Of a stretch of 37,488 bases of DNA, positions 3,984 to 36,499 are shown in pieces. The notes under the pieces were generated by a model. That model was not told the origin of the DNA, searched no databases, and saw only the letters and a program-made list of their open reading frames with translations. The stretch covers positions 1 to 37,488 of the forward strand of contig JAZDFP010000016.1 of NCBI GenBank assembly GCA_043807745.1. The letters run 5' to 3'. A program made the translations under genes and the position numbers. Within the stretch, counting starts at the first letter, position 1. Each line of letters begins with the position of its first letter. This stretch comes from Planctomycetota bacterium (GTDB lineage Bacteria > Planctomycetota > MHYJ01 > JACQXL01).

Positions 3984-3999
3984 AGAATATCTCTATAAA

Positions 4000-12502: not shown

Positions 12503-12505
12503 TAT

Positions 12506-14085: not shown

Positions 14086-14675
14086 ATTTTATTTATCTGT
14101 CTGAATTCCTTTTCCTCGGTTCTCGACCGGTAATATTGACCCTTTGCCATTACACGTTCCTGTTTCCGCTCTGCATTAAAGTGAATGATATTACAGTTCA
14201 TTATCGTTTCCATCTTGCGTTTATTCAAAATCTCATCGCCTATCATCAGGCAGTGATGAGTCCCAAAATATCTTATCCCCCTTCTATGCCTGAATAATCT
14301 ATATACCGGATAAGCGGATATTCCGTCTGTCCGGTATAGAGATATATTCCAGTCATCCTGTTCCTCATAGCCCTTCGGGATTCCCGCGAGTTCCTCATCC
14401 CCGTCTATCATCAGATACCAGTCGCCCTCTTTGCCCAGCAGGTATCGGTTCCTTTTAACTATCTGGCTTTCCCATGCATTTTCGGTCGTGATTATCTTAT
14501 CCGCATATTTCCTTGCCAACTCTATCGTCCCGTCGGTCGACCAGGGTTTGTCGTAGGGGAAAGAAACATAGGCTCCATCCACTACGATTACCCTGTCCAC
14601 TTTTTCCCTGATTGACCTGATACACCGCCCGAAAAACTGGGCTTCGTTATAAACGGACAGGACACCGATTAACAT
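14082..14675 (-). CDS. GT-A fold (GT2-like) glycosyltransferase
   Basis: Motifs LIGVLSVYNEAQFFGRCIRSIREKVDRVIVVDGAY and the DxD-type LMIDGDEE. An SD (AGAAAGGGAAA ATG) precedes it. It is the first gene after the major capsid gene. Confidence 0.65.
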   Translation of the reverse strand: MLIGVLSVYNEAQFFGRCIRSIREKVDRVIVVDGAYVSFPYDKPWSTDGTIELARKYADKIITTENAWESQIVKRNRYLLGKEGDWYLMIDGDEELAGIPKGYEEQDDWNISLYRTDGISAYPVYRLFRHRRGIRYFGTHHCLMIGDEILNKRKMETIMNCNIIHFNAERKQERVMAKGQYYRSRTEEKEFRQINKI

Positions 14676-14813: not shown

Positions 14814-16127
14814 TTACGCTAAAATATTTCTGGCTATTGCCACGATTTTCTCTGTAGTCTCGTCATATCTCGGGGTGAACGCCTTCCTGGTTGTCGCCAC
14901 GAGAATATTCTTCTGATATGACGGCCTGTTTTCCAGTTCCAGTTTGATTGCCCTGCGAGTTCCATGCAGGAATCCCGGACGGAACACAAGGATGGCTTCC
15001 GTCAAGGCATTGCCGGTTCCGTCATAAACAGCGCTTGCGCTCAGGTCTTCCCTGATATACTCGGAGCAGATAACCGGGATGTTATCAAACTTGCCGAGTT
15101 CGCCCTGGAGAACCGTTGCCATCGGGCCGTATTTATCCACAGTCCTGAAGCTGGCGAAGTTGGTCTTGTTAAGCATCGCGTTAAACGTGGAAATACCAAC
15201 TACCCATATCAGGTTGTTCGGATTCACTCCGTATTTTCCCATCAGGATTCTTACCGCCTGCAAGTCGCCTTCGACAACCGCATCCCCGCCCACGTTATAC
15301 TTAGCGGCTTCAAGACAGTGCTTGCGGTATCCCTTCCAGCATTTACGGGCATCATCCGCATCGGTGACATCGCTATCCTGATGCGCTGTCGTGGTATCAC
15401 CGTTGATATCGCAGTTTTCCACGCCATGCCCGAGCGCCTGGGCGATATCTTCCTTAATGGTCGGCAACATGGGTATGATTGAGTCTTCCTCAAGTTCATA
15501 ACTGATGTCAACCCTGGATATCAGTGTCTCTGCCGTGAGGGTTAATGCACCGGTTCCGGGTGTCGTTGCCGTGGCTTCGCTTGCCTCGGTCGATTTCTTG
15601 GCGGTTGACCTTGAGGTCTTGCGCCCGAATTTAAACGGATCGCTCGGCATCGGAACATCCCTGTGGGATGCAGCCACCTTCAATTCCAGGTTAAATAGGT
15701 CGACCAGTTCGGAACTGAAATCGGTCGGAATCCATTCTGCGCCCGTTCCTGTCCCGCCGGTCGTCATCGCCTTGGCGAGTTCGGATTCGTTGATTAACGG
15801 CTTCAAACTCTTAAAGAGATTGAAATTCTGCATCGGCTTCTGGCACAGCACAGACATGATCAGCAGGTCATCATTAATCTGCTGGATTTTCTTAACCGTC
15901 TCATCTTTCGTCCTCTTCCTAATGAGAACGTTCATATTGGTTATCCTGGGGTCAGCCTCATCCACGTTGAACTCACCTTTGCGCACTGCTTCGGCGAATT
16001 CATCACGCTGCAACTTCAGCACTTCCTCTATTTCTTCCTTTACTTTCGCTGGGTCAGCCGATTTGGCGATATCGGAAAGTTCTTTCACCTTCCTTCCGAG
16101 CGTATCGCTTATTTTATAGTCTACCAT
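14814..16127 (-). CDS. Major capsid protein (HK97 fold)
   Basis: 437 aa, placed after the protease and scaffold genes. The N-terminal delta-like helical region is followed by GGTGTGAEWIPTDFSSELVDLFNLELKVAS...VPMPSDPFKF, which is typical of Phage_capsid family proteins. Confidence 0.85.
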   Translation of the reverse strand: MVDYKISDTLGRKVKELSDIAKSADPAKVKEEIEEVLKLQRDEFAEAVRKGEFNVDEADPRITNMNVLIRKRTKDETVKKIQQINDDLLIMSVLCQKPMQNFNLFKSLKPLINESELAKAMTTGGTGTGAEWIPTDFSSELVDLFNLELKVAASHRDVPMPSDPFKFGRKTSRSTAKKSTEASEATATTPGTGALTLTAETLISRVDISYELEEDSIIPMLPTIKEDIAQALGHGVENCDINGDTTTAHQDSDVTDADDARKCWKGYRKHCLEAAKYNVGGDAVVEGDLQAVRILMGKYGVNPNNLIWVVGISTFNAMLNKTNFASFRTVDKYGPMATVLQGELGKFDNIPVICSEYIREDLSASAVYDGTGNALTEAILVFRPGFLHGTRRAIKLELENRPSYQKNILVATTRKAFTPRYDETTEKIVAIARNILA

Positions 16128-16197
16128 TTATTTTTGCCTTTCGTAACCATGGAATATAACTTCTAAACCTCTAAAAATTTATAGAGGCTATCAATCT

Positions 16198-17391: not shown

Positions 17392-17430
17392 AAATAAAAA
17401 AGCCGTTCAAACGTTATGTCTGAACGGCTT
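17392..17430 (-). terminator. Rho-independent terminator (repeat copy A) after the portal gene
   Basis: Minus strand: AAGCCGTTCA-gacataacgtt-TGAACGGCTT, followed by TTTTTTATTT. The stem is 10 bp and perfect. Confidence 0.7.
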
Positions 17431-17446
17431 AAGATTATTTCTATTA
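17392..17446. repeat. 55-bp exact direct repeat, copy A (partner at 19671..19725)
   Basis: aaataaaaaagccgttcaaacgttatgtctgaacggcttaagattatttctatta is identical at both positions by direct comparison. Confidence 0.95.
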
Positions 17447-17477
17447 GCCGTGTTATAAAATGCTATACTTTGTTATA

Positions 17478-19547
17478 TTATTCTACTACTGGAATTAACG
17501 TGCAACGACAGTTGCACAAATTTTTCGCTGAACCTTTCGGGTCACCGGGATATGCCATTATTTCCCCGCCCACGGAGAAGTCATCTTCAATATTTACCAC
17601 CTGCCCGTTTACTGCGGCGTGTTCCGGCCTGGTCCGCTCATCAATCGCGGTTAACCATTCCTTTTTCTCAGCCCCCATGGTCTTATATCCTATCAGACTT
17701 GCGTTATTGGATGCAGATATTACTTCCGTCCTGGCAATCGTCCGCGCCCGGTAAGGTTCGGCTCTGGTCATTCCGTCAAATACATCCTGCACCCTTGCCT
17801 TCATTTCCTCGATACTCTCGCCGTCATTGTATCCCTCGCCGAGTGTATCCCCGAGTTCCCTTAGCGTAGTCTTATTTATCTCATCTGCGAATTTGAATAT
17901 CTTGGTATTAAGATAATCGACTACTCTTGGGTCGGAAATGTCAAAATCAATAGACCCACCCAGCCTCTTGATTGCGACATTGCCGAACTCCTTCATGGTT
18001 TCACTCAATACTCCGGACATCTGTCTCTGTAATTCCTTATTGGCAAGTGTAATATTAAACATCAGGTTATCTACCTTGGCGTCTTTTCTAATCTTGTCCT
18101 TACCGACCCTTGTTGGTCTGTAATTCTTATCAATCGCATCCATTACCTCAGCCATCTGTTTCTTGGCAAATTTTCTTACGACTACTATCATCTCGTCCTC
18201 ATATGGTTTAGTCCGGTCTACGTAGTCGCGCCATATCCGCTCTTTCTTCTCTTTCTTGGTCAACCTTGACTTGGTGACGGCCGGTTCAGGCTTAACTTCG
18301 TCTGCCGGGTAAAGATTAAAAGGACGATTCCATGTATATCCCCACGGGACCGCCGGCAATCCCCGGCGCGCCCTGACCTCGTTTATCGTTTCTATGCCGT
18401 TGGTCACAAGGGCAACGTCCATCGTCGTTCTCTTTTCCTCATTCTCCGCCATCGCTTTGATGAATTTATAATCAGGTTCAAAATAAAGATTTTCATCTAT
18501 CGGATAGCATAATTGAACCGTCAAGGTTGCCGCCATCTTTTCGGAAAGCGCCATTATAAGTTCATTGACGAATGTCTTTTTCTGTTCCTCCATATTGGAG
18601 TAATTGGTATATTCCAATATTCCTAAAATTCCCGGGGGGGTGCCAATTACTCCGAGTATTTCACTGCATCCCTGCTTCCTGCCCTCAATGAATTCGCTGT
18701 CTTTTTGGCTCTGTGTCGTCGGGGTATATTCTAATCCGTTATCCAAAAATAATTGCTTATGGAAATTGTCGGGTCCGGAATATTCAGTCTCTATCTGCCG
18801 TTTTATCCTTTCGAATGAATCGTCACTCAAGGATTTTTCGGTTGTGAATACTCCCGATACCTTCCCGCCTTTTTTGAAGAAGTTCTTGTTATATGCGATT
18901 GCGTAGTAATCCGTTATCAGGGTATTAACTAAAGGCGATAATGGAGATAACCCTTCGGAATCGGATAATGGATTCCAGAACTTGAAGTGTATCATTTCGA
19001 ACGGCTGGTATTCTATCGGCTTCTTCCCGTATTCGTATCTGATTACAGGCGTCGTTTTTCCAGGCACTACTACCGTCTTTCCAGATTGCAAAATAAATAA
19101 TTCTTTTGGTATATCAGAAGGTGCGGGTTTCCTTTTGTTGTATTCTTTTGCCGTGAAACAGTTGCCGGCGAGTGATAAATTTATTGAGATTCCTTCTTTC
19201 AAATCATAACCAGAATAAAACGGATTCGGTTTTTCAAGTAAATTAATAAGCAGATGGTCTTTTACCTCAATTCCCTTATCGCCCTTCCACTGCATGAGTT
19301 TAAAAGGGCACTTGGCGATGTTCCTGGCGATTGCCGCTATTGATGAATGAACCCATGGATGCAGGGAATAATTCTCCAAGTATTTCTGCCAGATTGAATT
19401 TGATTGTGATTTGCCGAATTGTTTGTTGTCATAATCATTTTCCAGAGCCCGGTTCTCTTTTGATATGGTTATGTCCCCGCCGGCACTGATAGATCTGAAC
19501 CGAGGATTATCTGGGATGGATTCAGATTTTGATATTTTCCTCTTCAT
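17478..19547 (-). CDS. Portal protein fused to a Mu F / SPP1 gp7-like minor head protein domain
   Basis: ~689 aa. The N-terminal two thirds are portal-like (position and size). The C-terminus RTIARTEVISASNNASLIGYK...WLTAIDERTRPEHAAVNGQVV...YPGDPKGSAKNLCNCRCTLIPV is a clear Phage_Mu_F motif. The ORF-track start at 19559 is a TTG. I prefer the first ATG at 19547 (MKRKISKSE). Confidence 0.85.
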   Translation of the reverse strand: MKRKISKSESIPDNPRFRSISAGGDITISKENRALENDYDNKQFGKSQSNSIWQKYLENYSLHPWVHSSIAAIARNIAKCPFKLMQWKGDKGIEVKDHLLINLLEKPNPFYSGYDLKEGISINLSLAGNCFTAKEYNKRKPAPSDIPKELFILQSGKTVVVPGKTTPVIRYEYGKKPIEYQPFEMIHFKFWNPLSDSEGLSPLSPLVNTLITDYYAIAYNKNFFKKGGKVSGVFTTEKSLSDDSFERIKRQIETEYSGPDNFHKQLFLDNGLEYTPTTQSQKDSEFIEGRKQGCSEILGVIGTPPGILGILEYTNYSNMEEQKKTFVNELIMALSEKMAATLTVQLCYPIDENLYFEPDYKFIKAMAENEEKRTTMDVALVTNGIETINEVRARRGLPAVPWGYTWNRPFNLYPADEVKPEPAVTKSRLTKKEKKERIWRDYVDRTKPYEDEMIVVVRKFAKKQMAEVMDAIDKNYRPTRVGKDKIRKDAKVDNLMFNITLANKELQRQMSGVLSETMKEFGNVAIKRLGGSIDFDISDPRVVDYLNTKIFKFADEINKTTLRELGDTLGEGYNDGESIEEMKARVQDVFDGMTRAEPYRARTIARTEVISASNNASLIGYKTMGAEKKEWLTAIDERTRPEHAAVNGQVVNIEDDFSVGGEIMAYPGDPKGSAKNLCNCRCTLIPVVE

Positions 19548-19560
19548 AGCATAAAGCAAA

Positions 19561-19670: not shown

Positions 19671-19709
19671 AAATAAAAAAGCCGTTCAAACGTTATGTCT
19701 GAACGGCTT
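19671..19709 (-). terminator. Rho-independent terminator (repeat copy B) at the end of the accessory island
   Basis: Same 10-bp stem and TTTTTTATTT tail as copy A. Confidence 0.7.
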
Positions 19710-19725
19710 AAGATTATTTCTATTA
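19671..19725. repeat. 55-bp exact direct repeat, copy B (partner at 17392..17446)
   Basis: Identical to copy A. Identity breaks at 19726 (a, versus g at 17447). Confidence 0.95.
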
Positions 19726-19764
19726 ACCGAAAAATCTAATTATAACCTCTGCCTTTATTTCATA
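19672..19764 (-). ncRNA. Candidate ~90-nt promoter-to-terminator transcript (small RNA or leader)
   Basis: It is bounded by the sigma70-like promoter at 19770..19798 and terminator copy B. It contains only a 2-codon mini-ORF (AAGGAAATT ATG AAA TAA). Confidence 0.3.
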
Positions 19765-21178: not shown

Positions 21179-22300
21179 TTATTTATTAATTAAAGAATCA
21201 AATAATCTTATATGTTCCTTTACCATCCGCTCCTGAGAAAACAATATCTTTCCTGAGTTGGCGATTTTCCTATTATCCAGAATATTCACTTCTTTTAATA
21301 ATGCGATTATGGTCCCGGCAAGAACCTCGGCATTGCCTCTTGGGAATCCATAAATGGCAGCCTCATTAATTATCTCTTCCATGTTCTCGCCCTCACTCAC
21401 GATACACGGCAGTCCGCAGCAGGTCGCCTCCATTATCGTCGTATCCATTCCTGTATAATATAGTGTCGGATTGACGAATATCTTAGCCTGATTGTAAACG
21501 CCTGGCATTTCATCATTCGGCAATGCGCCTTTGTATTCTATGTTAATAAAATCATGCTTTTCGGTATTGCTTCCAAATGCGACGCATCTGATATTCCTAT
21601 TCCATTCTTTTACCATTCCCATTGCATGGTTAAGCACTCCGATTCCTTTTAACTTGGTAAGGTTGCCGGTAAAAAGAACATCATATATCTTTTCCTGTTC
21701 AGGCATGTAGTCAAACCTGTCAATATCGATTCCATTCCTTATCATCTCCACCCTCTTCGACTGTAACACATATTTAATATTCCTTACATTCACTTCGGTT
21801 AATCCGATGAGGCAGTCGTATTTCTGCGCATTCATCCTGTCTTCCCGCGCTTGCATTATGCGCCCGTGCACCCATATTGCAAACTTGTTGACATCAAAAC
21901 GGACATCATCCGGATTCGTTATCGCCGGTATAAGCGACGTGAATATTTCCTCATAAGAGAAGCCGTGCAGTCTCTGGATTGACGGTATTGCCGGATAACT
22001 ATCTACTACATAACTTCCGGCTCCTGATTCTGAATAAATCAAATCCTGTTTTAACTCCCCCACTCTTTTGGTCGCCAACTTAAACCATTCCGGCGTATAC
22101 CGCAATGTCGGACAGGGTAGGTATTCTATCCTAACATTATTAACCACCTCTTCCTTGATTGACTTGTTAGGATTGCTCATGGTCAGCACGGTTATCTCAT
22201 GCCCTGCCTTGGCAAGCCCTTCGCATAGGCTACCGCATACATTGGGCATCCCTCCTGGGCTGGTCGTCGGATATCCGCGTGTTAAGACTGTGATTTTCAT
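21179..22300 (-). CDS. GT-B fold glycosyltransferase, GT4 family (Glycos_transf_1)
   Basis: The N-terminus is MKITVLTRGYPTTSPGGMPNVCGSLCEGLAKAGHEITVLT. The C-terminus is FVNPTLYYTGMDTTIMEATCCGLPCIVSEGENMEEII, which fits the E..g....EA...G.P.i.s motif. Confidence 0.8.
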   Translation of the reverse strand: MKITVLTRGYPTTSPGGMPNVCGSLCEGLAKAGHEITVLTMSNPNKSIKEEVVNNVRIEYLPCPTLRYTPEWFKLATKRVGELKQDLIYSESGAGSYVVDSYPAIPSIQRLHGFSYEEIFTSLIPAITNPDDVRFDVNKFAIWVHGRIMQAREDRMNAQKYDCLIGLTEVNVRNIKYVLQSKRVEMIRNGIDIDRFDYMPEQEKIYDVLFTGNLTKLKGIGVLNHAMGMVKEWNRNIRCVAFGSNTEKHDFINIEYKGALPNDEMPGVYNQAKIFVNPTLYYTGMDTTIMEATCCGLPCIVSEGENMEEIINEAAIYGFPRGNAEVLAGTIIALLKEVNILDNRKIANSGKILFSQERMVKEHIRLFDSLINK

Positions 22301-22301
22301 A

Positions 22302-22571
22302 TTAATCTGCGCTTTCTTTTATCCTTTTTCCGCCACTTGGGCTTAGAGTTGCTGGCACTTTCCCTTCTTTTATATATCTTAATAGAGGTCGTTGTGGTTT
22401 TGGATTTCCTTCTGGTCTTGGAGTTTGTGGTCGTCTGTTCACTCCGCCTTTTTTAACTGGCCCCTCCCTTAAACCATGAAAATCGTTTTGCTCAAGTTTA
22501 TTATCTAAATTATATCCAAAAGTATTTGGATTATTCCTCATTAGTAACCAATCTAAAAATCTTCTTATCAT
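22302..22571 (-). CDS. Basic, Pro-rich hypothetical protein (89 aa)
   Basis: ORF coupled by an ATGA overlap to the upstream gene. It contains KKGGVNRRPQTPRPEGNPKPQRP. No family recognised. Confidence 0.5.
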   Translation of the reverse strand: MIRRFLDWLLMRNNPNTFGYNLDNKLEQNDFHGLREGPVKKGGVNRRPQTPRPEGNPKPQRPLLRYIKEGKVPATLSPSGGKRIKESAD

Positions 22572-23128
22572 TTGGCCTCACTTTCTATCTTGATTGATTT
22601 TATAATAAATGGTCTTCTAACACTCGATAGGAAAAACCCTGCCGCTTTTAAAGCTGATATTATTCGAGTCTTCGGGTAATAGGTTTCGGTCGAATACATA
22701 ACCCCCTTAGCAATATCTGCGCCACTCCCAACTGCATTAAATGGCAACCTCACCTCTTCAACTTGGTAATCCGATTCAATTACAAACAGCCTACCCTTAA
22801 ACCCAATAAGAAAGGAACCGCCACATTCCGTCTCTTTATCCTTACTGGCAAAGCCACCATCTTTCAAACACGTCCTAACAGCATCAACGAAATCAGTAAC
22901 CATATATTCAAATACTGTTTTGCCATTACTGTATTCTGGAATTTTAAGTTTATATCTTAACAGTTGACCCATCCTATAGGATGAAGTAAAACCAATAATA
23001 AACTTATCCTTAATAAAAACCTTTTCATCTGCCCGAATCGCAACCGCATCATCCGCTTTTCCGATGCTATCCGCACCAATATAAATCTTATTCGATTTTT
23101 TATCTATAAGCCCTATTACACAAGTCAT
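22568..23128 (-). CDS. Proteasome beta / HslV-like Ntn hydrolase (peptidase T1-like)
   Basis: With the start at 23128 (SD AAAGAGG 7-8 nt upstream) the protein begins M-TCVIGLIDKKSNKIYIGADSIG, so Thr would be exposed after Met removal. Later motifs are FIIGFTSSYRMGQ and FNAVGSGADIAKGVMY (compare HslV aiGSGg.yA). The ORF-track start at 23149 overlaps the wecE-like gene and has no SD. Confidence 0.6.
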   Translation of the reverse strand: MTCVIGLIDKKSNKIYIGADSIGKADDAVAIRADEKVFIKDKFIIGFTSSYRMGQLLRYKLKIPEYSNGKTVFEYMVTDFVDAVRTCLKDGGFASKDKETECGGSFLIGFKGRLFVIESDYQVEEVRLPFNAVGSGADIAKGVMYSTETYYPKTRIISALKAAGFFLSSVRRPFIIKSIKIESEAK

Positions 23129-23132
23129 ACTA

Positions 23133-24269
23133 TTACCTCTTTCTTGCATAGAACTCTGCTATGCTATCTGTAATAAAATCTATATCCTCTTTCTTCATGC
23201 CGTAGTAAAGAGGAAGTCTTACTAATCTACTGCTCAAGTCTGTCGTGTATTTATCCTGTCCGTTGAATACCCCGAACTGCTTCCCCGCCGATGAACTATG
23301 CAGCGGCACGTAGTGGAATATCGCCAGGATATCTCTTGCCCTAAGATATTTTATCAGTTCGTTTCTCTCTGCCTCACTCCTGCATATCCCGTAAAATATA
23401 TGCGCATTGTGCCTGGCGTAATCCGGTATCTTATTTACTTTGAATCCATCGATGCTGGATAGTTTCTCATAGTAATAATTCCATGATTTCTTCCGGTCAT
23501 TGATTATCGTCTGTGCTTCCTCCAGTTGGGCCAGCAGGAATGCCGAACTTATTTCGTTAAGCAGGTATGACGACCCTTTGTCCATCCACGTGTATTTATC
23601 TACGTATCCTTTCAGGAAATTAGACCGGTTCGTTCCTTTTTCCCGGATGATCTCCGCTCGCTCGTAAAACTCCGGGTTATTAATCAGTATCGCTCCGCCT
23701 TCACCGCAGTGAATATTCTTAGTCTCATGGAAACTTAGACAGCCGATATCGCCGATAGTGCCCAAATACCTATCATTATACCGCGCAATGATGCATTGAG
23801 CCGCGTCTTCTATGACATAGATGTCTCTTTCCCTTGCTATCTGCATTATCTTGTCCATATCGCACGCCACGCCTGCGTAATGCACCACTATAATCGCTCT
23901 GGCCCTGTCATTTATTGCATCCCGGATTACATTCGGGTCTATATTCATCGTATCCGAGGCGATATCAACAAACCGTATCCGGGCGCCGTGTAATACGAAT
24001 GCATTGGCGGTCGACGGGAATGTAAAAGAAGGCATTATCACTTCGTCGCCTTCTTTTATGTTTATAAGTAATGCTGCCATCTCAAGCGCGTGCGTGCATG
24101 ACGGAGTGACCAGCACTTTATTGCATTCCATATTTTTCTCTATCCACGTCTGGCACTTCTTGCCGAACTCTCCGTCACCAGAGAACTTTTTCTTGAGTAT
24201 TACCTGAGTAATATATTCAAGTTCTTTTACTTTAAGCGTTATTGCCGGGACGTTGTATGGATATTTCAT
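23133..24269 (-). CDS. wecE: DegT/DnrJ/EryC1-family PLP aminotransferase, WecE-like (dTDP-4-amino-4,6-dideoxyhexose transaminase)
   Basis: It appears near-collinear with E. coli WecE as I recall that sequence. Shared stretches are VLVTPSCTHALEMAALLINIKEGDEVIMPSFTFPSTANAFVLHGARIRFVDI..DTMNID, VHYAGVACDMD, FHETKN, GEGGA.LIN, IIREKGTNRS.F, VDKYTW.D.GSSYL, FHY.PLH and RLPL. Confidence 0.8.
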   Translation of the reverse strand: MKYPYNVPAITLKVKELEYITQVILKKKFSGDGEFGKKCQTWIEKNMECNKVLVTPSCTHALEMAALLINIKEGDEVIMPSFTFPSTANAFVLHGARIRFVDIASDTMNIDPNVIRDAINDRARAIIVVHYAGVACDMDKIMQIARERDIYVIEDAAQCIIARYNDRYLGTIGDIGCLSFHETKNIHCGEGGAILINNPEFYERAEIIREKGTNRSNFLKGYVDKYTWMDKGSSYLLNEISSAFLLAQLEEAQTIINDRKKSWNYYYEKLSSIDGFKVNKIPDYARHNAHIFYGICRSEAERNELIKYLRARDILAIFHYVPLHSSSAGKQFGVFNGQDKYTTDLSSRLVRLPLYYGMKKEDIDFITDSIAEFYARKR

Positions 24270-24616
24270 TTTACCTTTTCTTTCTCATCCGGTATTTCAT
24301 AAAATTCCTCGCTTTGCCCCCTTGTAATCCTTTTTGCTTTCTCTTCTGCGGTTATACAATCATCACATACCCATGAATCCTTAACCACAGTTAATCGCTT
24401 CATTTGTTTTTTGCTAAAATAATATTTACGGCATCTGCTGCATCCTTCGCATATAGAAAAATCAACTGGATTTTCTATCTTACATTGCGGGCACTTAAAA
24501 ATCTTAATCTTATATACCCAATTTATTTCATTGTTTTTTACCAGAATCCATTTCATACAATGGTCACACCATATTAATGATTCACCGTCTTTTGGTTTGA
24601 ATACAAATAATGTCAT
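24266..24616 (-). CDS. Cys-rich zinc-ribbon-like hypothetical protein (116 aa)
   Basis: It has several CxxC pairs (CDHC, CPQC, CEGCSRC, CDDC). ATGA overlaps couple it on both sides to the MTase and wecE-like genes. Confidence 0.55.
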   Translation of the reverse strand: MTLFVFKPKDGESLIWCDHCMKWILVKNNEINWVYKIKIFKCPQCKIENPVDFSICEGCSRCRKYYFSKKQMKRLTVVKDSWVCDDCITAEEKAKRITRGQSEEFYEIPDEKEKVK

Positions 24617-25179
24617 ATCTTCCTCCCTATAAACAAACTCCCCACCCTTGGTAACCAGACGTATTTACTACCCGGCATCATTTCCTGCACTGCCTTAACC
24701 ACTCCCGGGGTTCCACCATCGTAATCGTGGCACATCACAATTCCGTTTTTGATTAAGAATGGCAGCCATAAACCCAGGTCTTGCTTGACGCTTTCATACG
24801 TATGCTCGCCGTCTACAAATAACAGGCTGATTCGTGCCGTCCACCCTTTTGCGAATTCCTCGCTCGTGCTCTTTATTGGCTGCACGATATCGGCAACTTT
24901 AAACTTGGATATATTCTTATTGAATTCCTCAAAGGTATCGCTGACATTAAATTTATTATGTGTTGACGTATCCCGGTGCGGGTCGACTGCAAAGATTAGG
25001 TTTTCGTTATATTTTAGTTTGGTTTTTAAACCTAATGCCAGCGCTATGGTGGACTTCCCCATCCACGAGCCTATCTCTACTATGCATCCGGCTTCCGGTA
25101 TTTCCGATGCATACTTAAATAAGGCATCGCCTTCATTCTCATTTATCCAGCCTGGTATTTCTGTCCAATGTGGTTTCAT
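24613..25179 (-). CDS. Class I SAM-dependent methyltransferase (Methyltransf_24 / O-methyltransferase-like)
   Basis: Motifs GCIVEIGSWMGKSTIALALGL and LLFVDGEHTYESVKQDLGLWLPFLIKNGIVMCHDY. An SD (TAAGGAGCGAT ATG) precedes it. Confidence 0.7.
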   Translation of the reverse strand: MKPHWTEIPGWINENEGDALFKYASEIPEAGCIVEIGSWMGKSTIALALGLKTKLKYNENLIFAVDPHRDTSTHNKFNVSDTFEEFNKNISKFKVADIVQPIKSTSEEFAKGWTARISLLFVDGEHTYESVKQDLGLWLPFLIKNGIVMCHDYDGGTPGVVKAVQEMMPGSKYVWLPRVGSLFIGRKI

Positions 25180-25187
25180 ATCGCTCC

Positions 25188-25289
25188 TTAATATGGATAA
25201 TGTCCGTTTGTAAAATATGGCTCATTATTTTTGGTTTTCACTGGCTTCTTGGTGCCCTTACCTTTTTTTGACTTCTTGTTCTTTTTCAC
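25188..25289 (-). CDS. Possible Lys-rich mini-protein (33 aa, GTG start)
   Basis: I translated VKKNKKSKKGKGTKKPVKTKNNEPYFTNGHYPY. GGAGG lies 9 nt upstream of the GTG, and the ORF fills an otherwise empty 109-bp gap. This call is very tentative. Confidence 0.2.
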   Translation of the reverse strand: MKKNKKSKKGKGTKKPVKTKNNEPYFTNGHYPY

Positions 25290-26014
25290 TAATATAAACC
25301 TCCGTTTATATGTATTGCCTGGCCGGTGATGTAGGAACTTTCATCGCTCAACAGAAACCTAATCATCCCGCCCAACTCCTCTATTCGACCGAACCTGCGC
25401 ATCGGTATCGATTCTTTTATCTCGTTCCGGATATCGAGCGGTATCTGGTTAATCATCCCGTATTCGAAGTATCCGAGCGCCAGGGCATTGACCGTGATAT
25501 TCTTATTCACCAATTCAGCAGCGAGCGCCTTGGTTAACCCTATGATACCCGCCTTGGCTGCACAGTAATGGGAGGCGCCGATTATTCCCTTGAATGCGGC
25601 GACCGATGATATATTAATTATCCTGCCTCCATTGCTTGCCCTCATACCCGGGATAAATTCATTGATGCACATAAAAGCGGAAAACAGATTATCGTTAATG
25701 ATTGTCTGGAATTCTCCGGTAGGCATTTTCCAGCTCATTGCATTGGATGATGCGCCGGCCATGTTGACGATTCCCCACACATTACCAGCTTTAGCTTTTA
25801 ATATTTGCACGTCATCTTCATTGGTCAGTTCGGCACGGATACACACGGCATCGCTTTCTATCCCATGGCCCATCAATACACTGTCCAATTTGTCTTTGTT
25901 GCCCCTGTATTGGCAGACGATATCGTATTGCTTGCTGCCGAGCAGGTAGTTAACGAGTTCAACCCCGATTCCTCCGTTAGCACCGGTTATTAATATTCTT
26001 TTATTATTTTCCAT
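25289..26014 (-). CDS. Classical short-chain dehydrogenase/reductase (FabG-like)
   Basis: The cofactor motif is ILITGANGGIG. The catalytic motif is S..(13)..YCAAKAG (YxxxK). The length, 241 aa, is too short for an RmlB-type extended SDR. Confidence 0.8.
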   Translation of the reverse strand: MENNKRILITGANGGIGVELVNYLLGSKQYDIVCQYRGNKDKLDSVLMGHGIESDAVCIRAELTNEDDVQILKAKAGNVWGIVNMAGASSNAMSWKMPTGEFQTIINDNLFSAFMCINEFIPGMRASNGGRIINISSVAAFKGIIGASHYCAAKAGIIGLTKALAAELVNKNITVNALALGYFEYGMINQIPLDIRNEIKESIPMRRFGRIEELGGMIRFLLSDESSYITGQAIHINGGLY

Positions 26015-26023
26015 TATGAAAAC

Positions 26024-26764
26024 TTAATACCTTTCAAAGTGTTTATGAAACGTATAAAAAGCATTGTCTATGCTTGGTTCAAATCCTAATCGCACCCAGA
26101 CCTTCTGCACGGCTATGCTCGTTATCTGCGTTGACACTATCATCCGCTCCTTTTTCTGCCCGGCAATCCAGTTAAGCGCTTCGATGATAAGCGAGCGATA
26201 GATTCCCTTGCCCTGGTATTCCGGTAGGATGCTTGAGAGCACGCCTTCGCCGTCCTTGTCATTGTTCAGGCGCACGGCAACAAAGCCAACTATCTTACCT
26301 TTGTCTTCGGCCACGAATACTTTATCTGCTGCCAGTTTATCGTGGCAGACCCGATATCCCCAGTCTTCATATGTTCGATTGCATTCATCTATATTTAACA
26401 TGGTATCGTTATGATAGTGACCGTTGTAGTTCTTAAATCCAATTGCGGATATTTTCTCAACTAACCTGGTTTCGGTTGCAGGGTCCAGTTCCCGGATGAT
26501 TATATTATCTTCCCTTTTATCTTTCTGAATACTCTTTAGGTTATGCACATAGCATACCTGCGTATCCATTAGCCGAAATCCTGCACTCTCCATTTCTTGA
26601 ACGGTTGCTATATCCGCAGCATTACACCGGGCAATCAGAAACCTAACGCTATTGGCTTTGCAATAAGTAAGCACATCAAGAATATCATCATGCTTGATAC
26701 CGCTCGCCCTTGCCGATTGTATTCCGAATCGTTCCGTGTCTAATTTTGATAATGATATTATCAT
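26024..26764 (-). CDS. wecD: Two-domain GNAT N-acetyltransferase, WecD-like (dTDP-4-amino-4,6-dideoxyhexose N-acetyltransferase)
   Basis: The GNAT core is IVGFVAVRL...EGVLSSILPEYQGKGIYRSLIIEALNWIAGQKKERMIVSTQITSIAVQKVWVRLGF. The N-terminal extra domain (LDTERFGIQSA...FLIARCNAADIATVQEMESAGFRLMDTQV) parallels E. coli WecD as I recall it. The gene is close to the wecE-like gene. Confidence 0.6.
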   Translation of the reverse strand: MIISLSKLDTERFGIQSARASGIKHDDILDVLTYCKANSVRFLIARCNAADIATVQEMESAGFRLMDTQVCYVHNLKSIQKDKREDNIIIRELDPATETRLVEKISAIGFKNYNGHYHNDTMLNIDECNRTYEDWGYRVCHDKLAADKVFVAEDKGKIVGFVAVRLNNDKDGEGVLSSILPEYQGKGIYRSLIIEALNWIAGQKKERMIVSTQITSIAVQKVWVRLGFEPSIDNAFYTFHKHFERY

Positions 26765-26925
26765 CTTATCTCCTTAACAGATTTAATCTTTCCTGAACAC
26801 AGTTCGACGTCTTTTATCATCATCGACCTAATTGCCCATCGTGCCGCGCCCCTACTTTTAGCCTTGATATGGATTAACCTGTAATCCTTTACTTCTATCT
26901 TTACTTCGTAGTATTTTGATTTCAT
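26761..26925 (-). CDS. Small hypothetical protein (54 aa), absent from the ORF track
   Basis: I translated MKSKYYEVKIEVKDYRLIHIKAKSRGAARWAIRSMMIKDVELCSGKIKSVKEIR. It starts right after the upstream TAA, and its TGA overlaps the ATG of the wecD-like gene. Confidence 0.4.
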   Translation of the reverse strand: MKSKYYEVKIEVKDYRLIHIKAKSRGAARWAIRSMMIKDVELCSGKIKSVKEIR

Positions 26926-27780
26926 TTAGAAATACTCCCCTTTATATTTCAATATTTCTTTCACGTCTTTGCCGTAGTATGGATGCTTCTTCATTATTGC
27001 CGGAAACGCCCCCTTATACGGCACGGTAAACATCGGCGAAGCGTCTAAATTCATATTGACATTAGTCGTCTCTTTTGCATTCATCCACTTATTAATCACG
27101 TCCACTGGGTTCTCCCTCGGTCTCTTGGAATAAAATTGGTTGTTCCATTCCGCTTTCTGTTCCAGGTGTTTTAAATTATGCACCCACTTAAAGTGATGTA
27201 TTTTAATATCGTGCGCCAGGTTAGCTCCTCCCATCCGCACTTCGCATTCCGGTCGTGACGGATAGACAAAAGCCGCATTCTTGGTTATTGCTTCTAACTT
27301 CATATCCCGATTAAACATGTAATTGCGCCCTTCAGCTCCCGGGCCTACCCAGCCGAAGTCGCCGTGGAATACCAAGTGGTCAGGTGAGTAATTGAACTTC
27401 CTTTCTTTGGTCAACTTTATCAATTTATTTAACTCCTTGTCATCCCATACCTCATCTGGCATACTGATGATAAAAGCGTCATCATCGGTGTATCCGAGTT
27501 CACACATTTTATCAAATCCTGCACGCCATTGCTCATTAGGTGAATACCAGCCCTCACTGAATACAGTATGTATTTTGCCATGATGTTTCTTTCGCATTAA
27601 CTCTATATATTCGAGCGTCCTGTCCTGGTCTTTTATTTCTGCTTTATTTATGCGCCACTGCCACATATATTTGGTTGGACAGGTTATAACAATATGGTCG
27701 AGTTTAAGTAGGCTCTGGATACACTGGGCCATGTATTCCTCGTCGTGCGGCATACAAATCATTAAAGCAGATATTTTCAT
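26926..27780 (-). CDS. Putative GT-A fold glycosyltransferase (divergent third paralogue)
   Basis: I prefer the start at 27780 (MKISALMICMPHDEEYMAQCIQSLLKLDHIVI; SD AAAGGATAAC ATG). It has acidic motifs DDDAFIISMPDE. It shows weak similarity to the two head-locus GT-A genes. Confidence 0.4.
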   Translation of the reverse strand: MKISALMICMPHDEEYMAQCIQSLLKLDHIVITCPTKYMWQWRINKAEIKDQDRTLEYIELMRKKHHGKIHTVFSEGWYSPNEQWRAGFDKMCELGYTDDDAFIISMPDEVWDDKELNKLIKLTKERKFNYSPDHLVFHGDFGWVGPGAEGRNYMFNRDMKLEAITKNAAFVYPSRPECEVRMGGANLAHDIKIHHFKWVHNLKHLEQKAEWNNQFYSKRPRENPVDVINKWMNAKETTNVNMNLDASPMFTVPYKGAFPAIMKKHPYYGKDVKEILKYKGEYF

Positions 27781-27790
27781 GTTATCCTTT

Positions 27791-28189
27791 CTACCTGATT
27801 TCATCTATTTCATCAGGCTTATCCTTGCTTTCAACTATCCTTAAATCTATACCTAAATCCCTGAGGTAATGAACATCTATTATTATTTTTCCGTAAGAGA
27901 ATAAAACGGCTCCAAGGCTTTTCTTTCCATCTGCATAATACGCTCTTAGGTTTTTGTTAAACTCTATCAGTCCCTGTGATATTATCTGAGACTGCTCTTC
28001 GACTTGCTGATATGCTTCCCTCAGTTCTTCAATGGTCAGCGGCTTTTCCGGCTTCGCCTCAGTCCAGGTCGTTGCTTCTTTATCAATCTTTTCTGCTGAT
28101 GCCTTAATAACGTCGTGTTCTAATTGCCTATCTAATTCGTTTTTTCCGAAAATTAACTTTGCATTTTCCCATGCTTCTTTATTTATCAT
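27791..28189 (-). CDS. Hypothetical protein (132 aa)
   Basis: I prefer the start at 28189 (MINKEAWENAK), which forms an ATGA overlap with the upstream stop. The longer ORF-track start at 28294 would overlap the upstream gene by 108 nt. Confidence 0.5.
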   Translation of the reverse strand: MINKEAWENAKLIFGKNELDRQLEHDVIKASAEKIDKEATTWTEAKPEKPLTIEELREAYQQVEEQSQIISQGLIEFNKNLRAYYADGKKSLGAVLFSYGKIIIDVHYLRDLGIDLRIVESKDKPDEIDEIR

Positions 28190-28932
28190 TTGCAATATTC
28201 CTCCAGTTCTTTTGTCCCCACCGTCACATGTTTCGCCAGCATATCGCACAGCCGGGACAGGTTTGATACGTATGCGCTCTCGATGGTTTCCCACGTGAAA
28301 TGCAGGGTTATCGTTATCAGTGTGTCTTCCTCTATCATATTCAGTGCATATTCGTCCCTGTATATTTGTTCATTGAATACCAGTGCCGGTATTTCTCGTG
28401 ATCTGGTATAATACAAATGGGACGATTGGAGACACATCAACCCATTATCATCAAAGAAGCATTTACCCCCTTCCTCTATCTTCCCGCCGAAGAATGTCTT
28501 GAACCCGATTTGCTTGAGATGGTATCTCAGATTCGGTGTATCCTCATCAAACGGCGATATGTAACTGGTTATCTTGCCGAAGCGCACCTCCATTATCCGC
28601 TTATGTTCTGCTAATAATTTATGCAGTCTACATGATTCGCCTTCCATCTCCTCAATCACCCTAATTTCCTTAACATTGCATTCACACAGATTAACCAGCC
28701 ACCGCCTATGGTCTACCCCATGCATTGCTACGTCTATTTTGGCTTCCTGAATTATCTGGATATCCCGACTGTCCAGCATGGTCGGCACCACTCCGAGTAT
28801 GTATTTCACTCCGTATTTTTTGAATACCTCATTGAACATCGCCAATCTGAGATGCTTGGTCGCATCCGGCAGGCGCGGGTCAGTGTTTAGTGCCCGCGGG
28901 TAGTCATCTACGCGGACGATAAATTTCAGCAT
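28186..28932 (-). CDS. Polysaccharide deacetylase-like protein (NodB-fold / DUF2334-like)
   Basis: The stretch MLKFIVRVDDYPR...VFKKYGVKYILGVVP...DVAMHGVDH fits the pattern lRvDD......f..y..k..lgviP.....HG..H. Confidence 0.45.
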   Translation of the reverse strand: MLKFIVRVDDYPRALNTDPRLPDATKHLRLAMFNEVFKKYGVKYILGVVPTMLDSRDIQIIQEAKIDVAMHGVDHRRWLVNLCECNVKEIRVIEEMEGESCRLHKLLAEHKRIMEVRFGKITSYISPFDEDTPNLRYHLKQIGFKTFFGGKIEEGGKCFFDDNGLMCLQSSHLYYTRSREIPALVFNEQIYRDEYALNMIEEDTLITITLHFTWETIESAYVSNLSRLCDMLAKHVTVGTKELEEYCK

Positions 28933-29538: not shown

Positions 29539-31095
29539 TCAATTCTCCCTCTCTTTTGTGGTTACCACCCTAATTTTCGGCACGTTCCTGAGTGCCTGTT
29601 CCCGGACCTGCCAAGCAATTGCCCAGGCTATTACCAAGTCATCAAAACTCCCTCCCTTCGCCCCATATCCACCGTCTGATAACTGCTGGAATGTCTGACA
29701 TTGACCCAGAAATTCCATGTCGTTGACCTTCATTAGATTTTCCACGAATGCATTATCAAGTCCGTTAATCATCAGCGGTCTCGTCTTTGCATTCGTATGC
29801 CATCCCAACTTACCCTCGCCACCGTCTGCATCATAATCTACGTGCTTATAAATATTGGGATAACGAATGGTATTATACAGAGTATTAAGTGTTGAGTGTC
29901 CGTGATTATTCGCTTCCGGAGCGAGCATACCGGTGTTGTATTCATAACCAAGTTTCGCCATCTTCTCGCCGAATACCTCCGGGCGCCATCTGCCCACCAG
30001 ACATGCCACCTGCTCGCAGGTATTAACATCAAGCACGCCTGCACAAGAGAAATCCGATTTCTCTAATCCCTCCCCCACATCACCCCCTATCGCATAGACG
30101 TGCCCCTTCTCCGGGTTAACCCATATCAACAGCGCGCCGTCTTCCCTGATTTCTATTGGCGGTTTGCATTTGGCAGCCAGTGCTCGGACAATTTCGATAT
30201 TGAATCTATGCAAGCCGGATGATATAAAAGCCTCCATTGGATTTTCGGGAAACTCCTGCGGGAATAGTTTTTTATATTCAAATTTCGTATCCCTGCGCCA
30301 TTTAATCTGTTCAGGTATGATATCTATTTCGTATATCTCTTTGGCATATCTAATTAAGTCTTTTTCATTCTCTTCATATTTAAGTTCCTCTCCTTCCCCT
30401 AATGCCAACATGTTATTTTGGTCTATATACCAGGGCAGGAATATCGGATTCCAACTATTGCCGCCCTTTGTTGCCTCGTTCCAGGTATCAAAGAACCATC
30501 CGCCGACCCCGTTGCCGGTTGTCTCGCATATCACATCCCCATATCGGCAAGCCCCAAATATACCTGCGATAAAGTTCTCTATTGCCTCTTTAGTGCCTGG
30601 AAAGTATGCCGCTTCACTCAGATGCACCCGTTGCACCGTCTTACTACGGCCGGCCGCCTTCGCCCCGGCTGTGCCGATGGAGAATTTACTATTAATTCTA
30701 GGGAAGTCCAGTTCGTTCTTATTTTCATAATCCCGGCGCGGTCTTATAGACGGGTCCAATTTATCATAAAATAATTGCGCTATCCTGAATATTTCCTGCG
30801 TATCGGGTTTGGTATGAGCTAAGGTTATACATGACTGATTAGCCATCGTTGCTACCAGCTGGAAACTCTCCGCTTGTTCAAGCGTAGTTATCCCTACTTT
30901 CCTTGACTTCAATACTAGGTATCGCTTCTTCTTGCCCAACTTGCGATAGTAGTTCTTCAATTTGAGATAATATATTTGCGTTGAGTTAAGATAAAACGGG
31001 CGTATGTATCCCATTTCGTCCTTGATATACAGGAACGTCTGCATATACTTGATTTTGTTATTCAAATACGAATATGCTTGTGCCGTATCTACCAT
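29539..31095 (-). CDS. Terminase large subunit
   Basis: 518 aa. The Walker A-like motif is YLVLKSRKVGITT (compare lKaRQ.G.St), and the Walker B-like motif is RVHLSEAA. A C-terminal nuclease-like region follows. It sits downstream of the TerS-like gene. Confidence 0.85.
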   Translation of the reverse strand: MVDTAQAYSYLNNKIKYMQTFLYIKDEMGYIRPFYLNSTQIYYLKLKNYYRKLGKKKRYLVLKSRKVGITTLEQAESFQLVATMANQSCITLAHTKPDTQEIFRIAQLFYDKLDPSIRPRRDYENKNELDFPRINSKFSIGTAGAKAAGRSKTVQRVHLSEAAYFPGTKEAIENFIAGIFGACRYGDVICETTGNGVGGWFFDTWNEATKGGNSWNPIFLPWYIDQNNMLALGEGEELKYEENEKDLIRYAKEIYEIDIIPEQIKWRRDTKFEYKKLFPQEFPENPMEAFISSGLHRFNIEIVRALAAKCKPPIEIREDGALLIWVNPEKGHVYAIGGDVGEGLEKSDFSCAGVLDVNTCEQVACLVGRWRPEVFGEKMAKLGYEYNTGMLAPEANNHGHSTLNTLYNTIRYPNIYKHVDYDADGGEGKLGWHTNAKTRPLMINGLDNAFVENLMKVNDMEFLGQCQTFQQLSDGGYGAKGGSFDDLVIAWAIAWQVREQALRNVPKIRVVTTKEREN

Positions 31096-35328: not shown

Positions 35329-36048
35329 CTATGGTTGGTCGCGTTCCAATATTCTCCTGAGATTGCTCTTTTTCTTGATAGTCAACCCCGCCCCTTGTAA
35401 CCCCTCAATCAATGCCCGGACTTTTTCCGGTGATGGTTCGGGTAGATTGCAGTTCTTACTATCAGCTCCAATATTTATGAATGCCGGTTTGATTTCCTTC
35501 ATCCAATCCAATAATCCGTTATTAAATTCATCAGTTATATCAAAATCGGTGATTGGCTCAATCGTAACGAATACCTGAATACCTTTATCAACGAATAGTT
35601 TTAGAGCTTGACCCCGACTCCAAGTATATGGAGCTTCGCTAAATTTATAAGTATCTTTTCGGTTAGTTTCGATTGTAGTTCCTATCATAAAGTTAGAAGG
35701 GAAATACTCAAAATATTCCAATGCCCTTATGGGATTTTTAGTCTGGAAAATATATTTATTATCAGGATATTTTTTACAGTGTTCACATATAGTTTTAATC
35801 CATTCATACTTAATTTTATAGGCAAACAAATCATTCATGTGTTCAATAAAAATGGTCTTGCCTGAGCCGTAATTGACCAATAACTCTTTCTCGATTAGAC
35901 GGGGTTCTCCTTTGTATCTATCCGGCACTCCAAATCTATTCTTTTGAACATAACAATAACTGCATTTATGGGGACACTCGCCACCTAAGTGGCTATGCAT
36001 GTGAGTTACGAAATCATACATATTTCCGCGTGATTTATTGAGTGGCAT
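35329..36048 (-). CDS. Radical-SAM-type protein (CX3CX2C), resembling the phage Gp37/Gp68 (DUF5131)-like and SplB-like small radical-SAM families
   Basis: I prefer the start at 36048 (MPLNKSRG), 1 nt after the upstream TAA. The Cys motif is GGECPHKCSYCYV. Further blocks TIFIEHMNDLFA, YIFQTKNP, MIGTTIETN, VTIEPITDF and INIGADSK parallel the conserved blocks of DUF5131, as I recall them. Confidence 0.55.
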   Translation of the reverse strand: MPLNKSRGNMYDFVTHMHSHLGGECPHKCSYCYVQKNRFGVPDRYKGEPRLIEKELLVNYGSGKTIFIEHMNDLFAYKIKYEWIKTICEHCKKYPDNKYIFQTKNPIRALEYFEYFPSNFMIGTTIETNRKDTYKFSEAPYTWSRGQALKLFVDKGIQVFVTIEPITDFDITDEFNNGLLDWMKEIKPAFINIGADSKNCNLPEPSPEKVRALIEGLQGAGLTIKKKSNLRRILERDQP

Positions 36049-36049
36049 G

Positions 36050-36499
36050 TTATTTCCCTTTCTCATTCACGCCAAGGGCTTGTTTAAATTCTTCTGTAAA
36101 TAAATTCCAAGTTCTTCTACCTATCTCTCCGGTTAATCTATCAAGTGGAATACCCATTTTTTCTTGTAATAATTTATGAACTTCCGCTAATTGTTCTTTT
36201 GTCATTGGGATAAAAATGTCTTCTGGATATGGATTTTTAGGCAACATATCCACAACCGCCTTGAGTATTTCTGATGTGGCTTTGTCAGGTGGGTTACACC
36301 TATCGCAATCACCGTCAAGATTACAATCTGTAACAGGACAGTTTCCTTTTATTATATTCCATATCTCCTCCCTCAACCTATTTGGCTGGAGTGGGGTGGG
36401 TTGCCAACACATAAGTTCCCCGGATATATTTCTCATGTGGTTATGACATGGCGTTTTTCGTTCTATATAACTGCAATTATTACAACTCTTATCTTCCAT
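36050..36499 (-). CDS. Cys-rich hypothetical protein (149 aa)
   Basis: The N-terminal half contains CNNC...C...C...C..DC..DGDCDRC. The C-terminal half is helical. Confidence 0.55.
   Translation of the reverse strand: MEDKSCNNCSYIERKTPCHNHMRNISGELMCWQPTPLQPNRLREEIWNIIKGNCPVTDCNLDGDCDRCNPPDKATSEILKAVVDMLPKNPYPEDIFIPMTKEQLAEVHKLLQEKMGIPLDRLTGEIGRRTWNLFTEEFKQALGVNEKGK

Follow-up and report, generated by a model that had tools for sequence, protein, structure and literature searches.

What does a set of genes that very probably make and transfer an unusual sugar do among the head-assembly genes of a bacteriophage? The question is raised by positions 23133-26764 of a 37,488-base stretch of contig JAZDFP010000016.1 (assembly GCA_043807745.1). 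We refer to this whole stretch as the window; every gene in it, and thus every gene coordinate given below for it, lies on the minus strand. A preliminary description had placed an aminotransferase of 378 aa, a methyltransferase of 188 aa, a short-chain dehydrogenase/reductase (SDR) of 241 aa and a GCN5-related N-acetyltransferase (GNAT) of 246 aa in the interval, and all four open reading frames (ORFs) were recovered at the same positions and on the same strand, with Pfam matches that agree with these labels. On balance, we consider it probable that the interval is the core of a phage nucleotide-sugar tailoring cassette, the product of which feeds glycosyltransferases encoded by the same phage, with virion proteins as the leading acceptor. 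The window is an incomplete genome, with a tail gene of 1330 codons and another ORF cut at its two ends; terminal repeats were sought in it and none was found.

The 378-aa protein (23133-24269) is a pyridoxal phosphate (PLP)-dependent aminotransferase with a strong Pfam match to DegT_DnrJ_EryC1 (E-value 1.5e-86). On the NCBIfam model NF008687, which describes dTDP-4-amino-4,6-dideoxygalactose transaminase (dTDP, deoxythymidine diphosphate), it scores 559.9 bits against a curated equivalog cut-off of 375, and on TIGR02379 it scores 546.5 bits against a cut-off of 434.85. It is collinear from end to end with the solved WecE structure 6blg (residues 3-371 against 5-375, E-value 8e-124), matches a second WecE structure, 4piw, with an E-value of 2e-123, and shows 53% identity to E. 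coli K-12 WecE over 360 aa. The near-collinearity with E. coli WecE supposed in the preliminary description is therefore borne out over the full length of the protein. The SFHETK(N) motif aligns with that of the WecE structures and identifies Lys184 as the PLP lysine.

VioA from E. coli O7 strain IAI39, a characterised enzyme, served as the comparator of gluco configuration and was scanned against the same profile library. On NF008687, VioA reaches only 173 bits and the phage enzyme 560; on the DesI model the order is reversed, with 310 bits for VioA and 133 for the phage enzyme. By these sequence scores the phage enzyme is a member of the WecE clade, distinct from the VioA/DesI (gluco) clade. 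Because it scores within the former and outside the latter, clade membership alone favours a product of galacto configuration, dTDP-4-amino-4,6-dideoxy-D-galactose (dTDP-Fuc4N). The comparison with VioA that the preliminary description had proposed as a guide to stereochemistry thus points to galacto rather than gluco, and the curated models, the solved structures, the lysine motif and the separation from VioA together uphold its assignment of the protein to WecE.

The 246-aa protein (26024-26764) is a two-domain GNAT with the fold of WecD. Pfam recognizes only its C-terminal half (Acetyltransf_1, 4.9e-11), and the match to the WecD profile PRK10975 spans residues 6-237 of the protein and positions 10-227 of 232 in the profile. 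An AlphaFold2 (AF2) model built on 71 family sequences has a mean predicted local distance difference test (pLDDT) score of 95.5. When this model was compared with the whole PDB, the best fold match was E. coli WecD (2fs5_A, E-value 3.3e-15, template modelling scores 0.73/0.80), and, as modelled, the protein has the WecD layout of an N-terminal domain followed by a C-terminal GNAT domain. The family to which it belongs is well populated, with members that are about 45% identical to it (44-47% in the loci that were read) and all of about 245 aa.

Additionally, we examined the genomic neighborhoods of bacterial homologs of this GNAT, which come from Chloroflexota and metagenomes. A GT2 gene precedes the GNAT gene in the contexts read (L004/L005, L006 and L008). 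In two of the three (L004/L005 and L006) the GNAT is followed by an aminotransferase and then by a large membrane protein with a GT_STM0557_N or PMT_2 domain; in L008 the GNAT has no aminotransferase within 7 kb. The aminotransferases of L004/L005 and L006 show 46-53% identity to the phage enzyme and reach 570-606 bits on NF008687. Because it combines the WecD fold with a conserved pairing with WecE-type aminotransferases, the phage GNAT is predicted to act as an N-acyltransferase on the product of the WecE-type enzyme. The WecD architecture claimed in the preliminary description is supported by the fold, by the span of the profile match and by this pairing, but the protein scores below the cut-offs set for WecD sequences, to which we return below.

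The bacterial arrangement is of interest in its own right. It appears to be an uncharacterised operon of a GT2, a WecD-fold GNAT, a WecE-type aminotransferase and a GT-C-like membrane protein (L004/L005, 6055-10268; L006, 6051-10888; L008, 6042-11345), and it looks like a three-component system that places 4-acetamido-4,6-dideoxy-D-galactose (Fuc4NAc) on a surface polymer.

The substrate of a WecE-type enzyme has to come from somewhere, and the preliminary description had stated that the window contains no thymidylyltransferase and no 4,6-dehydratase. This proved correct: in tblastn searches of all six window frames, E. coli RffH and RffG found nothing better than E-values of 6.1 and 3.1, and Pfam scans that covered every window ORF long enough for RmlA/RmlB detected no NTP_transferase or RmlB-type protein. 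Homologs of RffG and RffH are likewise absent from the 21 kb covered by our comparison in a related phage contig of 52 kb (L003, Logan SRR23882335_1043). Because neither RmlA nor RmlB is encoded in the 37.5 kb at hand, we presume that the host supplies dTDP-4-keto-6-deoxy-D-glucose, which is a plausible and the simplest reading. The earlier wording that the pathway must draw on the host enzymes goes too far in its "must", as genes run off both ends of the window.

The 241-aa protein (25289-26014) is an SDR of the classical FabG type and not of the RmlB type, as had been described: it matches adh_short_C2 (6e-42) and adh_short (1.2e-38) in Pfam, its best PDB matches are the FabG structures 2uvd and 3osu (E-values of about 4e-43), and it carries TGANGGIG (TGxxxGIG) at residues 10-17 and YCAAK (YxxxK) at residues 150-154. 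An RmlB-like role for this protein was considered and rejected, since its similarity to RffG is confined to 65 aa of the Rossmann N-terminus (E-value 5e-4 in a tiny database). It falls under all FabG and PhaB equivalog cut-offs (best 200 bits against 269; 188 against 298 on TIGR01830), and its nearest relatives, 51-61% identical, form a group of their own. The SDR matches in GenBank phages are at most 35% identical, are generic FabG proteins and apparently represent mostly host-derived sequence filed as phage.

The neighborhoods of the nearest relatives of the SDR suggest what the enzyme may do. In five of the six contexts read, a GNAT of the Acetyltransf_9 family follows immediately, and in two of these five a 3-ketoacyl-acyl carrier protein synthase III (KAS III) gene precedes the SDR; the sixth context differs from the others. 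All five sit among genes for GT2, GtrA, PIG-L or polysaccharide deacetylase, RmlC-like or PMT_2 proteins, and one of them (L012) is a phage-like contig. The recurrent (KAS III)-SDR-Acetyltransf_9 GNAT cassette (L011, 5998-8829; L020, 5026-7823; L010, 1541-3381; L021, 6001-7829; L012, 10001-11640) is often accompanied by a PIG-L or polysaccharide deacetylase and probably puts 3-hydroxyacyl groups on amino sugars.

Because the SDR is conserved beside the GNAT in the window and in L003, and because members of its subfamily recur next to GNATs and KAS III, a 3-hydroxyacyl substituent is a serious alternative to acetyl on the amine of the phage sugar. By analogy, we regard an N-(3-hydroxyacyl) and an N-acetyl product as about equally likely. 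The "acetamido" of the preliminary description may still be right, but it is probably too narrow. It is also possible, though in our view rather unlikely, that the genes carry out plain dTDP-Fuc4NAc synthesis as in the enterobacterial common antigen pathway, with acetyl-CoA as donor, and that the SDR and the methyltransferase are unrelated to it and serve some other ketoreduction or auxiliary lipid metabolism. WecD, the top structural match of the GNAT, is an acetyltransferase; no SDR is present in the bacterial operons read that carry the same GNAT family together with a WecE-type enzyme; profile scans of the ORFs of the window reveal neither KAS III nor acyl carrier protein (ACP); and PHROGs classes FabG-like proteins as general auxiliary metabolic genes. 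This reading fits poorly with the low scores of this SDR on the FabG and PhaB models and with its closest relatives, which are glycan-cluster enzymes that adjoin N-acyltransferases and not FabG of fatty acid synthesis. An unrelated SDR is also hard to reconcile with its position directly beside the GNAT in both phages, in which the two SDRs are 68% identical.

The last of the four ORFs encodes a 188-aa S-adenosylmethionine-dependent methyltransferase of the Methyltransf_24 family (24613-25179; Pfam 4.4e-24). Its only PDB match is 6g7d (E-value 1e-10), which we take, unconfirmed, to be a mycobacterial sugar O-methyltransferase, and the protein is probably a sugar O-methyltransferase as well. 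Because the related phage has no counterpart, we treat this enzyme as an accessory decoration of the pathway.

The position of these genes in the phage genome bears on whether they belong to the phage at all. They are part of a block of 10 kb and about 16 genes that lies between the large terminase (29539-31095; phrog_2, 1.2e-21) at the upstream edge, where the terminase stop overlaps the start of the next gene, and a portal-MuF fusion (17478-19559; phrog_2662, 2e-113) at the downstream edge. The GenBank phage with the nearest portal is Geobacillus phage GBK2, in which the genes for terminase, portal, protease, capsid and adaptor form an unbroken series. Neighboring cassette genes abut or overlap, which fits a single late transcription unit. 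A promoter scan gave no usable signal, with fewer sites than in shuffled controls. This insertion in the head-morphogenesis operon, like the second glycosyltransferase cluster after the capsid gene, had been overlooked in the preliminary description.

The closest homologs of the aminotransferase, the GNAT and the SDR are bacterial, at 45-61% identity, which might indicate that bacterial DNA was joined to the phage by misassembly or is a recently captured, non-functional fragment. We consider this extremely unlikely. The cassette ORFs are intact, lie on one strand, overlap or abut, and resemble the remainder of the window in GC content and skew. In the independently assembled L003 the order runs terminase, a 257-aa protein, a 282-aa protein, a 54-aa ORF, GNAT, SDR, a 34-aa peptide, aminotransferase, GT4 and portal, and the cassette proteins of the two phages are 51-87% identical. 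Because both order and identity are conserved in this way, the cassette is a stable, selected part of the phage lineage and not an artefact of assembly. L003 lacks the genes for the Methyltransf_24 protein, for a 116-aa protein and for an HslV-like protein that are found in the window. Its terminase-portal interval holds, in addition, a gene for an IS605 OrfB/TnpB (Cas12f-like) protein (15062-16180), and the interval between terminase and portal may be an insertion hot spot, as this suggests.

Searches for other relatives placed the phage apart. Megablast of 12 kb against GenBank phages returned no match, as did tblastn with the GNAT, and no GenBank phage has a portal or a terminase that is more than 30% identical to that of the window. 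A scan of GTDB genomes with the portal gave matches of only 22-23%, so that neither a prophage relative nor a host is indicated; in IMG/VR, searches with the aminotransferase and with alignments of the GNAT and of the portal reached only distant matches of 25-31% identity, and an exact-protein look-up of the aminotransferase returned no record. The siphovirus lineage of the window is without close relatives in GenBank, IMG/VR and GTDB.

The sugar made by the cassette would need a transferase, and several are encoded in the window. The block between terminase and portal contains a GT4 (GT-B) glycosyltransferase of 373 aa (21179-22300; Glyco_trans_1_4, 1e-16; Glyco_transf_4, 2e-12), 65% identical in L003, which is a candidate transferase for the tailored sugar. 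A second glycan cluster (11690-14675) is flanked by the major capsid gene (14814-16127) and the head-tail adaptor gene. By Pfam, it encodes a GT2-like protein of 197 aa (14082-14675), a GT9 protein of the heptosyltransferase family (13141-14085), for which GT9 matches were also found in the PDB, and a class I methyltransferase (12506-13144). Its remaining gene (11690-12502) encodes a 270-aa protein with a GT2-like N-terminus, which is paralogous to the 197-aa protein (33% identity over 103 aa). The window thus contains one GT4, two GT2-like and one GT9 protein, as well as two methyltransferases.

We found no convincing transmembrane segment in the 20 proteins of the clusters by hydropathy; the sole peak above about 1.6, a value of 1.74 in the GT9 protein, is read as a buried core helix. 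The clusters encode no flippase, no GT-C and no initiating (polyprenyl-phosphate) transferase either. Because the genes sit within the head-assembly operon and are accompanied by none of these functions and by no membrane protein, the acceptor is most probably a cytoplasmic target that is present late in infection, with the proteins of the virion as the leading candidate. More broadly, the gene content suggests that the phage attaches an unusual glycan to its particle or to the surface of the host.

Phage sugar genes are usually read as serving DNA glucosylation or serotype conversion, and both readings have to be weighed here. In the second of them, an envelope glycan of the host (lipopolysaccharide (LPS) core, O-antigen, teichoic acid or S-layer glycan) would be remodelled at the cytoplasmic face, so as to block superinfection or change the serotype. 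Known members of GT9 include LPS heptosyltransferases, and the bacterial homologs of the GNAT-WecE pair feed surface-glycosylation systems of the GT2/GT-C kind. Reviews describe such remodelling as what phage glycosyltransferases classically do (PMC7326821, PMC12619734). We regard it as a serious rival for this phage, though a rather unlikely one, since the clusters encode no flippase, GT-C, polyprenyl-phosphate transferase or membrane protein, the genes are embedded among those for head assembly instead of lying by an integrase or attachment site with a promoter of their own, and no lysogeny gene was seen in the window. Alternatively, the sugar could be attached to a hydroxymethylated base in hypermodified phage DNA. 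All cluster proteins are soluble, and phage glycosyltransferases that add diverse glycans to DNA are known from work cited in PMC12619734. This reading seems very unlikely to us: neither the window nor the 21 kb of L003 showed a hydroxymethylase, dNMP kinase or other base-modification gene, and the clusters lie in the head module and not in the replication module.

Starting from the family memberships, the fold, the gene order and the lack of both rmlA/rmlB and membrane proteins in what is at hand, we infer the following route for the tailoring cassette with virion proteins as acceptor. Host enzymes of the RmlA/RmlB type would presumably make dTDP-4-keto-6-deoxy-D-glucose. The WecE-clade enzyme would transaminate it at C4 to dTDP-4-amino-4,6-dideoxy-D-galactose, the amine of which would be N-acylated by the WecD-fold GNAT from an acyl-CoA donor. 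The SDR may well provide or finish a 3-hydroxyacyl group, such as 3-hydroxybutanoyl, by acting as a reductase on a 3-oxoacyl thioester or on the N-(3-oxoacyl) sugar; failing this, an acetyl group would be added. In the window phage only, the Methyltransf_24 enzyme could add an optional O-methyl group. The soluble glycosyltransferases would then use the product: the GT4 enzyme and perhaps also, from the second cluster, the GT2-like and GT9 proteins. All of these genes would be expressed together with the head-morphogenesis operon. In its most specific form the proposal is that a siphovirus builds O-methylated N-(3-hydroxyacyl)-4-amino-4,6-dideoxy-D-galactose from a hijacked host dTDP-keto-sugar and, with four or five soluble glycosyltransferases that are expressed along with the head genes, attaches it to its own virion; we advance this version only tentatively.

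Several observations, in addition to the lack of KAS III and ACP and of an SDR in the bacterial operons, weigh against a tailoring cassette directed at the virion. The GNAT scores far below the curated WecD cut-offs (64 bits against 219 on PRK10975/NF008212 and 40 against 195 on TIGR02382), shares 21% identity with E. coli WecD over 216 residues and gave no direct WecD match in a PDB sequence search; by sequence it is a remote WecD relative that falls outside the formal WecD equivalog. The usual GNAT partner of the SDR subfamily, Acetyltransf_9, is a family different from that of the phage GNAT, and coupling of SDR and GNAT in the phage is suggested by analogy with those contexts. The Methyltransf_24 gene has no counterpart in the 21 kb of L003, and the window being partial, rmlA and rmlB may lie on the remaining part of the phage genome. 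No match to the GT4, GT9 or 270-aa protein was obtained by tblastn among 50,697 GenBank phage records, which include the glycosylating mycobacteriophages. Finally, no obvious Ser/Thr-rich C-termini, of the kind found in glycosylated mycobacteriophages, were seen on the capsid or tail tube proteins.

The remaining genes of the block offer few further clues. Next to the GNAT gene lie a 54-aa ORF (26761-26925), which has a counterpart in L003, and a gene for a lineage-specific protein of 292 aa (26926-27804), 51% identical to the 282-aa homolog in L003. The 292-aa protein gave no match in Pfam, NCBIfam, PHROG or PDB sequence searches, has one representative among 1.84 billion proteins, and yielded a single-sequence AF2 model with a pLDDT of 36, too low for a fold search. 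It takes the slot of the GT2 in the bacterial GT2-GNAT-WecE operons, yet has no similarity to that GT2. A GT-A transferase is a conceivable identity for it. Further upstream, a 248-aa protein (28186-28932) is 67% identical to the 257-aa protein of L003; it has a weak, sub-threshold match to DUF2334 (deacetylase-like) and no match in the PDB. Between the SDR and the next gene, both phages encode a very basic peptide (33 aa at 25188-25289 in the window, where it ends in PYFTNGHYPY; 34 aa at 9876-9980 in L003) with an invariant C-terminal PYFxxGHYPY. This peptide and the 54-aa ORF are two small conserved ORFs within the interval that had previously been overlooked. The two other genes that L003 lacks encode a Cys-rich, zinc-ribbon-like protein of 116 aa (24266-24616) and an HslV-like Ntn-hydrolase-family protein of 193 aa (22568-23149; phrog_1040, 1.5e-18), the latter between the aminotransferase and the GT4 enzyme.

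Elsewhere in the window, a tail protein of more than 1330 aa (3-3992), truncated by the window end, follows a Dit-like protein and carries a Laminin_G_3 (concanavalin-like lectin) domain and a weak match to BppL_N. It is a probable carbohydrate-binding receptor-binding protein, and the combination of an SPP1-type Dit with a lectin-domain tail protein is a weak hint of a host of the Gram-positive type. A radical-SAM/DUF5131 protein of 245 aa (35329-36066) is encoded upstream of the terminase. The portal gene is flanked by a 59-nt direct repeat, 98% identical between its copies at 17392-17450 and 19671-19729. Each copy contains a terminator-like hairpin with a 13-bp stem and, read on the coding (minus) strand, a T-run after it, and the repeat could be transcriptional punctuation or a small mobile or recombination element.

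The enzymes described here all belong to known families, as typical members or as distant relatives. The unusual feature is that they occur together and within a phage head operon, where what is probably a complete tailoring module for a rare amino-deoxy sugar is wired, with several soluble glycosyltransferases, into the genes for head assembly. If the proposed function is correct, phages can make bespoke sugars by tapping a single host intermediate; we know of no earlier phage that tailors the nucleotide sugar itself, and this would then be the first. If the virion is the acceptor, particle glycosylation extends beyond mycobacteriophages and other actinobacteriophages, which would be relevant to particle stability and to the immune recognition of therapeutic phages. 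The analysis also points to two uncharacterised bacterial modules, the GT2-GNAT-WecE-GT-C operon and the KAS III-SDR-GNAT cassette, both of which probably install N-acylated amino sugars on cell surfaces.

Among known systems, the enterobacterial common antigen genes RffG/RffH-WecE-WecD (E. coli K-12 b3788-b3791) share with the phage the aminotransferase clade, with an identity of 53% and a score above the equivalog cut-off, the two-domain WecD fold and the predicted intermediate dTDP-4-amino-4,6-dideoxy-D-galactose. In contrast to them, the phage has no adjacent rffG/rffH and no WecF (GT56), Wzx or Wzy, its GNAT is only distantly similar to WecD (21%), and it adds a FabG-like SDR and a methyltransferase in a head operon. 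The bacterial GT2-GNAT-WecE operons (L004-L006, L008) share with the phage the GNAT family (44-47%), the WecE clade (46-53%) and, where the two are paired, the order GNAT to aminotransferase. Theirs, however, are coupled to a GT2 of the polyprenyl-phosphate type and a large membrane GT-C or PMT_2 protein, whereas the phage has an unrelated soluble 292-aa ORFan in the GT2 slot, an inserted SDR and no membrane protein.

The viosamine island of Pseudomonas syringae consists of vioA, vioB, vioR, vioM, vioS, acp and vioT (PMC3927599). By genetic evidence, the N-(3-hydroxybutanoyl) group of a 4-amino-4,6-dideoxyhexose cannot be built without VioR, which is FabG-like, and VioM adds a 2-O-methyl group to this hexose; the sugar caps the flagellin glycan, and a vioM mutant still transfers the unmethylated sugar (PMC3927599). 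The phage genes follow the same logic of 4-aminotransferase, N-acyltransferase, FabG-like reductase, O-methyltransferase and glycosyltransferase, and the dispensability of VioM for transfer is paralleled by the absence of Methyltransf_24 from the related phage. VioB, however, is a left-handed beta-helix enzyme and not a GNAT, the phage aminotransferase belongs to the WecE clade whereas VioA of E. coli O7 (the comparator used here, not that of P. syringae) is DesI-like, and the phage has small GT4, GT2 and GT9 proteins in place of the 1173-aa VioT and lacks KAS III and ACP. The likeness appears to be one of function, by analogy, and not membership, as the full gene set of the island is not found in the phage.

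Two viral systems remain for comparison. According to the summaries of Freeman et al. 2023 in PMC11600133 and PMC12619734, mycobacteriophage Che8 and the cluster O phages encode an O-methyltransferase and tandem glycosyltransferases and carry glycans on capsid and tail-tube subunits. The window phage likewise encodes glycosyltransferases together with a methyltransferase, but the transferases have no detectable sequence relation to those of the mycobacteriophages, whose hosts are Actinobacteria. To our knowledge, those phages have no pathway for nucleotide-sugar tailoring. Mimivirus has one, in which R141, L136, L142 and R132 make UDP-2-O-methyl-Vio4NAc (UDP, uridine diphosphate) that decorates its fibrils (PMC10117803). 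It is a eukaryotic giant virus that uses UDP sugars, of gluco configuration, instead of dTDP sugars, encodes its own 4,6-dehydratase and has no SDR for the acyl group. It shares with the phage a virus-encoded aminotransferase, N-acetyltransferase and methyltransferase that are clustered with glycosyltransferases, in its case to place a methylated 4-acylamino-4,6-dideoxyhexose on the particle, and the phage cassette, if our reading holds, would be the bacteriophage counterpart of Mimivirus fibril glycosylation.

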